This document shows positions 32,881-35,858 of a DNA stretch of 64,000 bases, one piece after another; positions within the stretch are counted from its first letter, which is position 1; each line of letters starts with the position of its first letter. The position numbers and the translations under genes are program-made. Origin of the DNA: Eledone cirrhosa (Eukaryota); the NCBI GenBank assembly GCA_964016885.1, contig OZ024744.1, positions 19,344,001 to 19,408,000 on the forward strand. Reading direction: 5' to 3'. The notes beneath the pieces were generated by a model. That model saw only the letters and a list, made by a program, of their open reading frames with translations, did not search any database and was not told where the DNA came from.

Positions 32881-35858
32881 ATGGATGTAAATATAATGTA
32901 TTTTGTAATACACTTTATGCTTAATCAAAAGCATTTTGAAGACCGTAAGCTATTGTTTTAAAGTAGTGACAAATTCACTCACTTCGATCTCAGCAAACAG
33001 GAGGAGATAAGCCGACATGACATGTTTCGCTTTTGTTGAAGCTTATCAAGGCCAACTACCCCGCCCGTCTGCTGAGATCAATGATGTTATATTCTTATAG
33101 AAATCTAGTAAATAATCAGGAGCTGATTATGCAGAGCGGTTGTTGGTCAGGCAGAAATTAAAAATTAGAATTGTAGCTCTGAAATAGCAATATATATATG
33201 GATGTAAATATAATGTATTTTGCAATACACTTTATGCTTAATCAAAAGCATTTTGAAGACCGTAAGCTATTGTTTTAAAGTAGTGACAAATTCACTCACT
33301 TCGATCTCAGCAAACAGGAGGAGATAAGCCGACATGACATGTTTCGCTTTTGTTGAAGCTTATCAAGGCCAACTACCCCGCCCGTCTGCTGAGATCAATG
33401 ATGTTATATTCTTATAGAAATCTAGTAAATAATCAGGAGCTGATTATGCAGAGCGGTTGTTGTCATGTCGGCTTATCTCCTCCTGTTTGCTGAGATCGAA
33501 GTGAGTGAAATTGTCACTACTTTAAAACAATAGCTTACGGTCTTCAAAATGCTTTTGATTAAGCATAAAGTGTATTGCAAAATACATTATATTTACATCC
33601 ATATATATATTGCTATTTCAGAGCTACAATTCTAATTTTTAATTTCTGCCTGACCAACAACCGCTCTGCATAATCAGCTCCTGATTATTTACTAGATTTC
33701 TATAAGAATATAACATCATTGATCTCAGCAGACGGGCGGGGTAGTTGGCCTTGATAAGCTTCAACAAAAGCGAAACATGTCATGTCGGCTTATCTCCTCC
33801 TGTTTGCTGAGATCGAAGTGAGTGAATTTGTCACTACTTTAAAACAATAGCTTACGGTCTTCAAAATGCTTTTGATTAAGCATAAAGTGTATTGCAAAAT
33901 ACATTATATATACATCCATATATATATATTGCTATTTCAGAGCTACAATTCTAATTTTTAATTTCTGCCTGACCAACAACCGCTCTGCATAATCAGCACC
34001 TGATTATTTACTAGATTTCTATAAGAATATAACATCATTGATCTCAGCAGACGGGCGGGGTAGTTGGCCTTGATAAGCTTCAACAAAAGCGAAACATGTC
34101 ATGTCGGCTTATCTCCTCCTGTTTGCTGAGATCGAAGTGAGTGAATTTGTCACTACTTTAAAACAATAGCTTACGGTCTTCAAAATGCTTTTGATTAAGC
34201 ATAAAGTGTATTGCAAAATACATTATATTTACATCCATATATATATTGCTATTTCAGAGCTACAATTCTAATTTTTAATTTCTGCCTGACCAACAACCGC
34301 TCTGCATAATCAGCTCCTGATTATTTACTAGATTTCTATAAGAATATAACATCATTGATCTCAGCAGACGGGCGGGGTAGTTGGCCTTGATAAGCTTCAA
34401 CAAAAGCGAAACATGTCATGTCGGCTTATCTCCTCCTGTTTGCTGAGATCGAAGTGAGTGAATTTGTCACTACTTTAAAACAATAGCTTACGGTCTTCAA
34501 AATGCTTTTGATTAAGCATAAAGTGTATTGCAAAATACATTATATTTACATCCATATATATATATTGCTATTTCAGAGCTACAATTCTAATTTTTAATTT
34601 CTGCCTGACCAACAACCGCTCTGCATAATCAGCTCCTGATTATTTACTAGATTTCTATAAGAATATAACATCATTGATCTCAGCAGACGGGCGGGGTAGT
34701 TGGCCTTGATAAGCTTCAACAAAAGCGAAACATGTCATGTCGGCTTATCTCCTCCTGTTTGCTGAGATCGAAGTGAGTGAATTTGTCACTACTTTAAAAC
34801 AATAGCTTACGGTCTTCAAAATGCTTTTGATTAAGCATAAAGTGTATTGCAAAATACATTATATTTACATCCATATATATATTGCTATTTCAGAGCTACA
34901 ATTCTAATTTTTAATTTCTGCCTGACCAACAACCGCTCTGCATAATCAGCTCCTGATTATTTACTAGATTTCTATAAGAATATAACATCATTGATCTCAG
35001 CAGACGGGCGGGGTAGTTGGCCTTGATAAGCTTCAACAAAAGCGAAACATGTCATGTCGGCTTATCTCCTCCTGTTTGCTGAGATCGAAGTGAGTGAATT
35101 TGTCACTACTTTAAAACAATAGCTTACGGTCTTCAAAATGCTTTTGATTATGCATAAAGTGTATTGCAAAATACATTATATTTACATCCATATATATATT
35201 GCTATTTCAGAGCTACAATTCTAATTTTTAATTTCTGCCTGACCAACAACCGCTCTGCATAATCAGCTCCTGATTATTTACTAGATTTCTATAAGAATAT
35301 AACATCATTGATCTCAGCAGACGGGCGGGGTAGTTGGCCTTGATAAGCTTCAACAAAAGCGAAACATGTCATGTCGGCTTATCTCCTCCTGTTTGCTGAG
35401 ATCGAAGTGAGTGAATTTGTCACTACTTTAAAACAATAGCTTACGGTCTTCAAAATGCTTTTGATTAAGCATAAAGTGTATTGCAAAATACATTATATTT
35501 ACATCCATATGTATATTGCTATTTCAGAGCTACAATTGTAATTTTTAATTTCTGCCTGACCAACAACCGCTCTGCATAATCAGCTCCTGATTATTTACTA
35601 GATTTCTATAAGAATATAACATCATTGATCTCAGCAGACGGGCGGGGTAGTTGGCCTTGATAAGCTTCAACAAAAGCGAAACATGTCATGTCGGCTTATC
35701 TCCTCCTGTTTGCTGAGATCGAAGTGAGTGAATTTGTCACTACTTTAAAACAATAGCTTACGGTCTTCAAAATGCTTTTGATTAAGCATAAAGTGTATTG
35801 CAAAATACATTATATTTACATCCATATATATATTGCTATTTCAGAGCTACAATTCTAA
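32881..35858. mobile_element. Nested young array of 317-319-bp hammerhead monomers (family B): ~1.8 units on minus, then ~7.5 units on plus
   Basis: Plus cores TTGATAA at 33751, 34070, 34387, 34706, 35023, 35340, 35657. Minus cores at 33043-33049 and 33360-33366. Inversion junction ~33461. Units nearly identical, inserted in the (TA)n of a family A unit. Confidence 0.93.
33740..33794 (+). ncRNA. Type I hammerhead ribozyme with U3-A8 core variant (family B)
   Basis: ggtagttggcc TTGATAA gctt caacaa aagc GAAA cat gtc atG TC ggcttatc. Predicted cleavage after 33786. Helix I extended by gatctcagcagacggg/cctgtttgctgagatc. Confidence 0.85.

Follow-up and report, generated by a model that had tools for sequence, protein, structure and literature searches.

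Metazoan non-LTR retrozymes are described as non-coding tandem units of 170-400 nt with a type I hammerhead ribozyme (Cervera and de la Pena 2020, PMC7229834), and both that work and a recent preprint propose a circular RNA template and a Penelope-like element (PLE) partner for them (PMC7229834; Li, Clavereau, Pollet 2026, 10.64898/2026.07.22.740005), the preprint reporting cleavage in only one of nine elements tested. In the account of Craig (2021, 10.1101/2021.04.23.441226), PLEs are marked by an inverted 5′ copy, a tail of 30-40 bp at one end and (TA)n targets, and non-autonomous multi-copy elements of Chlamys such as MRC1 are mentioned. The PLE protein of Poseidon PAc from Anolis cuts both strands of AT-rich DNA, and reverse transcription starts at two internal sites whose spacing equals the tail; because the PAc hammerhead is dispensable for insertion in vitro, cleavage need not belong to mobilisation (Frangieh 2024, PMC11167929). 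Hammerheads with a U3-A8 core pair occur naturally and show activity in vitro (Perreault et al. 2011, PMC3088659), with about 1,300 hits in the Cercyon PLE of Schistosoma mansoni (Cervera and de la Pena 2014, PMC4209133). We found no paper showing re-entry of a retrozyme into DNA from the anatomy of its insertions, a point on which the supplements of the retrozyme papers may bear.

Here we describe an insert in a 64,000-nucleotide stretch of the Eledone cirrhosa genome (contig OZ024744.1, positions 19,344,001 to 19,408,000), referred to as the window. Two divergent arms make up the insert (32873-35859), which lies inside the (TA)n spacer of an unrelated hammerhead host array (Table 1), carries every sequence-level feature of a non-LTR retrozyme and behaves like a non-autonomous PLE. 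We read it as a recent, non-coding 317-nt non-LTR retrozyme, probably copied from a circular RNA by a PLE-like reverse transcriptase (RT)/GIY-YIG protein acting in trans from two (TA)n ends, and give this reading a probability of roughly 0.65. The stronger result is the two-armed anatomy with its testable mechanism, rather than the published U3-A8 core or the nesting: the core adds little surprise because a natural, in-vitro-active variant was previously published, and nesting in the host array is to be expected of an element that targets (TA)n at most of its loci.

The earlier note had described one array of near-identical 317-319 bp units, unrelated to the host array and inserted into its (TA)n. 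The units are as described: those on the plus strand measure 317, 319, 317, 319, 317, 317 and 317 between predicted cleavage sites and the one on the minus strand 317, their mean identity over eight full units is 99.5% (minimum 98.7%), and their size falls within the range of about 170-400 nt given for metazoan non-LTR retrozymes, as had been proposed. Sequence common to an insert unit and a host unit is limited to an (AT)n tract and one 8-mer, and host units stand on both sides. Instead of one array, however, there are two arms of opposite orientation. The outer (3′) end of the left arm, at monomer position 141, is the end of an internal (AT)n and merges untailed with the target (TA)n, the first distinctive base being 32883; a target-site duplication is unreadable within this repeat. 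Both arms consist of head-to-tail units only, with no LTR and no coding capacity: no open frame of at least 120 aa overlaps the insert, which lacks the open frame with RT and GIY-YIG of an autonomous PLE. The host hammerhead has a C3-G8 core and a 4-nt palindromic helix III, and its units, located by anchors (17 left of the insert, 8 right), are 95.1% identical (25 scored) against the 99.5% of the insert units; the host array is the older of the two. Like the insert, it shows a predicted hairpin followed by CATATATATAT.

Table 1. Features of the insert and its surroundings, in window coordinates.
Feature	Position	Strand	Remarks
Host array	19824..39709	+	units of about 460-470 bp with a minimal hammerhead motif, 95% identical, unrelated to the insert
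Left target (TA)n	32752..32882		spacer of a host unit
Left arm	32873..33462	-	1.86 units, sense is minus; 99.8% to a monomer concatemer
Two minus-strand hammerheads	33014..33366	-	core starts 33366 and 33049; C17 at 33331 and 33014
Head-to-head arm junction	33461..33462		2-nt overlap/microhomology, TG
Right arm	33461..35859	+	7.57 units; outer (3′) end at monomer 167, 26-nt tail included
First complete plus core to C17	33751..33786	+	C17 at 33786
One full type I hammerhead, extended helix I	34040..34133	+	recurs in every unit
Reference monomer	34106..34422	+	predicted RNA of 317 nt, cleavage site to cleavage site; position 1 is 34106
Rare G, monomer position 88	34193..34193	+	A in the family; candidate (inferred) copied A-to-I edit
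Predicted small hairpin	35792..35811	+	monomer about 100-119; the priming sites lie immediately 3′
Tail	35834..35859	+	monomer 142-167, right end only; spacing of the two inferred priming sites
Right remnant of target (TA)n	35860..35884		next host unit begins at 35885

The insert is not unique and belongs to a clade with 1,920 core matches. In the 3.0-Gb genome searched, one monomer as query gave 254 matches from the 40 of 946 candidates scored, and copies genome-wide are 97-99% identical. Core patterns gave 549 exact matches, the 1,920 under a wider pattern and 630 for a sister pattern, with 0 matches for the reversed-pattern controls; among 100 of the 1,920 wider matches listed, 96 read TTGATAA and 4 TTGATAG. 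A 31-row tree (of 132 extracted rows, with no outgroup) forms a ladder of subfamilies in which that of the window is among the youngest and sisters are 70-80% identical. By these comparisons, the window insert is one very young copy of a dispersed, genome-wide clade. A distant relative at L045:3280-3761 is 73-77% identical and common only at monomer about 70-214, the priming region; it may represent a family with the same enzyme signal.

TTGATAA cores start at 33751, 34070, 34387, 34706, 35023, 35340 and 35657 on the plus strand and at 33366 and 33049 on the minus strand, which locates all of the seven plus and two minus hammerheads counted earlier, and C17 of the first full plus ribozyme falls on the cleavage coordinate predicted then, 33786. 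In the hammerhead detailed in Table 1, the core U3-U4-G5-A6-U7-A8-A9 occupies 34070-34076, followed by a helix II of 4 bp with a 6-nt loop, GAAA and a near-palindromic helix III, with predicted cleavage after 34105. Rfam Hammerhead_HH9 matches 9 of 9 motifs at 31.1 bits (E 7.5e-5) with a gathering score of 52, and the Rfam search of the window returned zero matches above gathering. The pattern YUGANRA / GAAA / UH with a paired 3-8 position describes the family, and 312 of the 320 cores at 92 young loci are TTGATAA, with C3 or G8 in none.

Folding of the 97-nt ribozyme region gives a z of -6.75 (0 of 200 shuffles equally good), and the 317-nt monomer folded as a circle gives -4.2 (0 of 60). For the monomer, the hammerhead fold is 5.3 kcal/mol less stable than the predicted minimum, and predicted pair probabilities for helices I and III in the circle are near 0. 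Helix III is predicted to be unstable as a hairpin but to self-dimerise at -10.5 kcal/mol, an energy that fits the dimer-dependent hammerhead cleavage described by Cervera and de la Pena (2014); on these predictions, cleavage would most likely proceed via dimers through the palindromic helix III.

The 3-8 pair of the 630 sister cores is C3-G8 in 86, U3-G8 in 4, C3-A8 in 4 and, by subtraction, U3-A8 in 536, which places a Watson-Crick pair in 622. Each of the three helices (I, which is open, II and the palindromic III) shows compensated changes across subfamilies, the variants being inherited states and hence few independent events. The sister counts and the covariation of all three helices uphold the proposal that U3-A8 is compensatory, and the uniformity of the young cores refutes decay from CTGATGA. 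Comparison across subfamilies indicates that the ribozyme helices are under compensatory selection, that the U3-A8 pair has been retained through about 20% divergence, and that the core is a compensated, lineage-wide state for which random decay is ruled out as the source. In the tree, a supported branch separates the C3-G8 rows from the rest, and one more distant relative reads C3-G8, likely the ancestral state. Inverted tandem repeats are prone to misassembly and the Rfam score lies under gathering, so an assembly artefact, or a decayed ribozyme in which TTGATAA is a random state, has to be weighed; we consider either extremely improbable, with the covariation, the 1,920 and 630 core matches against 0 in reversed controls, the presence of the family in contigs of other public runs, and the recurrence of two arms with varied junctions at 73 of 92 loci all against it.

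As far as the published accounts of the Schistosoma hammerheads and those of Perreault et al. describe them, the 3-8 pair is compensated in the same way, and activity in vitro is reported. Here, U3-A8 belongs to tandemly repeated type I motifs of full size in which helix I is long, whereas the Schistosoma motifs are minimal and mostly single, and a C3-G8 sister subfamily exists beside the U3-A8 clade in the Eledone cirrhosa genome.

The two-armed anatomy recurs across the genome. We compared 92 loci, the window and 91 others, fetched either as best-scoring matches to two queries or in list order and hence non-random, leaving out L097, L098 and L103 (duplicates) and L093/L094 (a long array); 73 are two-armed and 19 single-armed. 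One end lies at monomer 139-143 and the other at 165-175 in 60 of the 63 classifiable two-armed loci (binomial p 9e-15), and ten two-armed loci have one end outside both classes; the first locus set gave unlike fixed ends in 26 of 28. Three loci have like ends, one of which (L023) is explained by a mirror duplication that includes the flank. Among older sisters (74-92% identical), ends fall at homologous sites in most of 30 loci listed, as judged by eye. The flanks of the examined loci are (TA)n or AT-rich target with no poly(A) tail, and most arms join head-to-head through microhomology of a few bases. In 26 loci, arms with a tail are neither longer nor shorter than those without (p 0.65), and the tails of 26-34 nt are at the low edge of the 30-40 bp given by Craig (2021).

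These insertions share with PLEs, as outlined by Craig (2021), an inverted 5′-truncated copy, a one-sided tail and (TA)n or AT-rich targets, and with PAc two adjacent internal RT start sites. Unlike PLEs, the insert lacks an ORF, a single short unit is multimerised in both arms and the tail spans 26-34 nt; the (AT)n at position 141 is complementary to the target, whereas for PAc the starts have no homology with the cut DNA. The pattern gives good support to mobilisation by a PLE protein, which is highly probable because the unlike fixed ends match both the traits listed by Craig (2021) and the RT starts of Frangieh (2024). The hairpin predicted at monomer about 100-119 is found in sister subfamilies too and is possibly a candidate enzyme-binding signal. 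At L098:4413-7347 (G000:C4, about 358.18 Mb), a 99.8% mirror repeat takes in both arms of an insertion together with about 500 bp of its flank; it is a secondary rearrangement or an assembly effect.

The window itself contains, at 15400-18479 on the minus strand, frames that we take by motif reading to be a PLE-like RT with a C-terminal GIY-YIG-like domain, members of a young and very abundant family (72,772 candidates, of which the 150 scored are 94-100% identical) with several 713-aa open frames; Pfam gave no match for three such PLE-like fragments, which are likewise presumed from their motifs. The 3′ UTR of this family carries a 139-bp doubled segment and has no sequence in common with the unit (700 nt, 30 loci; one family of many), and no PLE open frame runs into a unit in 194 loci. 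At L217, a two-armed copy is attached to a PLE 3′ UTR cut at the doubled segment, with a 25-nt fold-back; we rejected a template switch here in favour of an insertion beside a PLE end. Elsewhere in the window, adjacent frames of 551 and 449 aa at 8286-11278 on the minus strand resemble a LINE-type endonuclease and RT, by motif reading only, and a 25-bp repeat forms four spaced clusters, about 570 bp apart, at 12070-13844.

Variants within the arms bear on the template. In 324 of 327 diagnostic comparisons the arm majorities are concordant, more than one unit is present in 125 of 166 arms, and the G252/A252 split (24/16 among 40 loci) is never mixed inside one locus. The G88 of the window is present in 10 of 10 passes over both arms. 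From this concordance, both arms come from a single template, probably a circular one. The earlier attribution of near-identity to one rolling-circle event stands as regards the single template and falls as regards a single priming, of which there are two; near-identity alone is uninformative on rolling circle since copies are 97-99% identical genome-wide, and the informative sign is G88 in every pass. Exact matches to the G88 variant number 20 at six places, 16 of them in the window and L017, and a genome-wide donor search that covered this variant found no exact-match array longer than the 7.6-unit arm of the window.

After removal of four markers common to several loci, 16 distinct private variants are fixed in every pass, six of them A>G and one T>C. 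Of 313 changes confined to a single pass, 25 are A>G (Fisher p 0.002 for the excess in the fixed set; 0.006 with all 20). A>G against T>C on its own does not reach significance (p 0.125, small n), and the DNA mutation spectrum of the family is led by C>T and G>A. For the neighbour preference of ADAR, a 5′ G is found at 0 of 6 sites against 15% expected, with n of only 6. The two-armed locus L178 (G000:C1:57406057-57406988) has core A9>G (TTGATAG) in 4 of 4 passes over both arms. Cephalopods have high levels of RNA editing, and changes at core A9 impair hammerhead cleavage. The A>G excess suggests that the template had undergone A-to-I editing and that each pass read the edited base anew.

Much of this anatomy would also arise if the PLE protein had mobilised a linear, uncleaved read-through transcript of a homogeneous donor array, the ribozyme being incidental: the end pattern would be identical, L178 has spread a core with A9>G, G88 is common to two loci (the window and L017), and at L024 the variant G267C stands in one of two passes per arm in shifted register, which fits a dimeric or linear template. 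We nevertheless hold a linear donor transcript to be unlikely, since a new variant reaching all units of both arms needs a monomer bottleneck and 16 such private all-pass variants, with their A>G excess, were seen, no array among the exact G88 matches exceeds the longer arm of the window, and the helices appear to be under compensatory selection.

Positions of the arm 5′ ends are relevant to cleavage. Eight of 166 lie within 5 nt of the cleavage site against 5.2 expected, and their distribution is non-uniform in the 166-arm set (KS p 0.006; p 0.53 in the first 102). Counted by eye, stops at the cleavage site number 5 among 30 of 43 genome-wide places against 8/15 at the control position, where TAT microhomology inflates the count, and there is no excess. 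This lack of excess over the control position led us to reject run-off there as a proof of cleavage; of three apparent stops at position 1, two are most likely alignment artefacts from subfamilies whose helix III differs. At L186, L190, L191/L192, L196 and L198, short deletions have their 3′ edge at the predicted cleavage site; these are five independent cases among 30 places, some explained by microhomology. Ligation scars were rejected as their explanation, the site-ending deletions being in one pass only where several passes exist.

These deletions would suit a PLE RT that, on reaching the 5′ end of a linear cleaved monomer, jumps to a 3′ end, that of the template itself or of a second monomer, and so builds up multimers; perfect head-to-tail units would equally be expected. 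Intermolecular jumps would, however, mix haplotypes, and the arms are homogeneous; there is no stop excess at the cleavage site, and several of the deletions show microhomology and are confined to one pass. Jumping is, in our judgement, improbable.

Growth at the DNA level is real. At L093/L094 (G000:C2:207686300-207705000 and beyond), a 304+316 bp dimer has expanded into an array of more than 18 kb that contains three copies of a 184-bp insert; here a retrozyme is becoming a satellite. A dimeric circle was rejected for this 18-kb locus: the short arm lacks the 12-nt deletion, and the 184-bp insert was amplified with the dimer, which points to growth as DNA. Variants recur in subsets of passes at L021, L040, L043 and L024, with a period of three at L043. 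Arm length is not purely an RT product, because arrays grow at the DNA level too. In the satellite model put forward in the discussion of the preprint by Li et al. (2026), short insertions of the solo-pLTR type would be expanded and homogenised by unequal exchange and gene conversion, as the amplification at L093/L094 and the period-3 repeats at L043 might suggest. As the origin of the young arms we regard it as very improbable: very young loci have variants common to inverted arms, changes seen in a single pass have not spread, the same fixed ends go with more than one unit in 125 of 166 arms, and the A>G excess is unexpected from DNA mutation, in which C>T and G>A lead.

We also considered contigs from four public runs of unspecified kind. 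In one (X1), a lone 347-nt contig at depth 2.7, with almost no related contigs, wraps the 317-nt unit 34106-34422; another (X4) holds a similar wrapping contig, and a third (X2) holds 986 pieces. The wrapping contigs were rejected as evidence of a circle, for tandem DNA gives an identical loop.

Returning to the retrozyme copied from a probably circular RNA, the following course is proposed. A tandem copy would be transcribed and cleaved by its hammerheads, most likely as dimers, and a host ligase would close the monomer. By analogy with Frangieh (2024), a PLE protein would then cut both (TA)n strands. The sequence pattern suggests that priming from one DNA end begins at monomer 141, which leaves an untailed arm, and from the other at 165-175, which leaves a tailed one, and that both arms copy one haplotype for more than one unit, passing the cleavage site of a putative circle unstopped. 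Finally, the arms are joined head-to-head, mostly by microhomology.

In common with metazoan non-LTR retrozymes as published, the family has tandem units with one palindromic-helix-III hammerhead each and dispersed arrays. Where the retrozyme papers, in the parts available, show RNA, cleavage and circles, for the present family these are predicted from sequence; a U3-A8 pair fixed in a clade, divergent arms with fixed unequal ends and all-pass variants are not described for retrozymes in those same parts. Standard CUGANGA descriptors and the Rfam gathering score overlook this whole clade, with more than 2,400 motifs in the genome. Because it is young, the family gives exact predicted RT starts, a candidate circle sequence and a marked template, which makes the step from RNA to DNA testable in vitro. 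We are evenly divided on whether each insertion is a record of one circular ribozyme RNA, copied in repeated rounds by two Penelope RTs that start 26-34 nt apart from either end of a (TA)n break, with A-to-I edits of the circle carried into all passes of both arms. If so, the insertions would be genomic proof of the proposed step from circular RNA to DNA, and host editing would be a route driving ribozyme evolution, in which even core A9 may be edited after circularisation.
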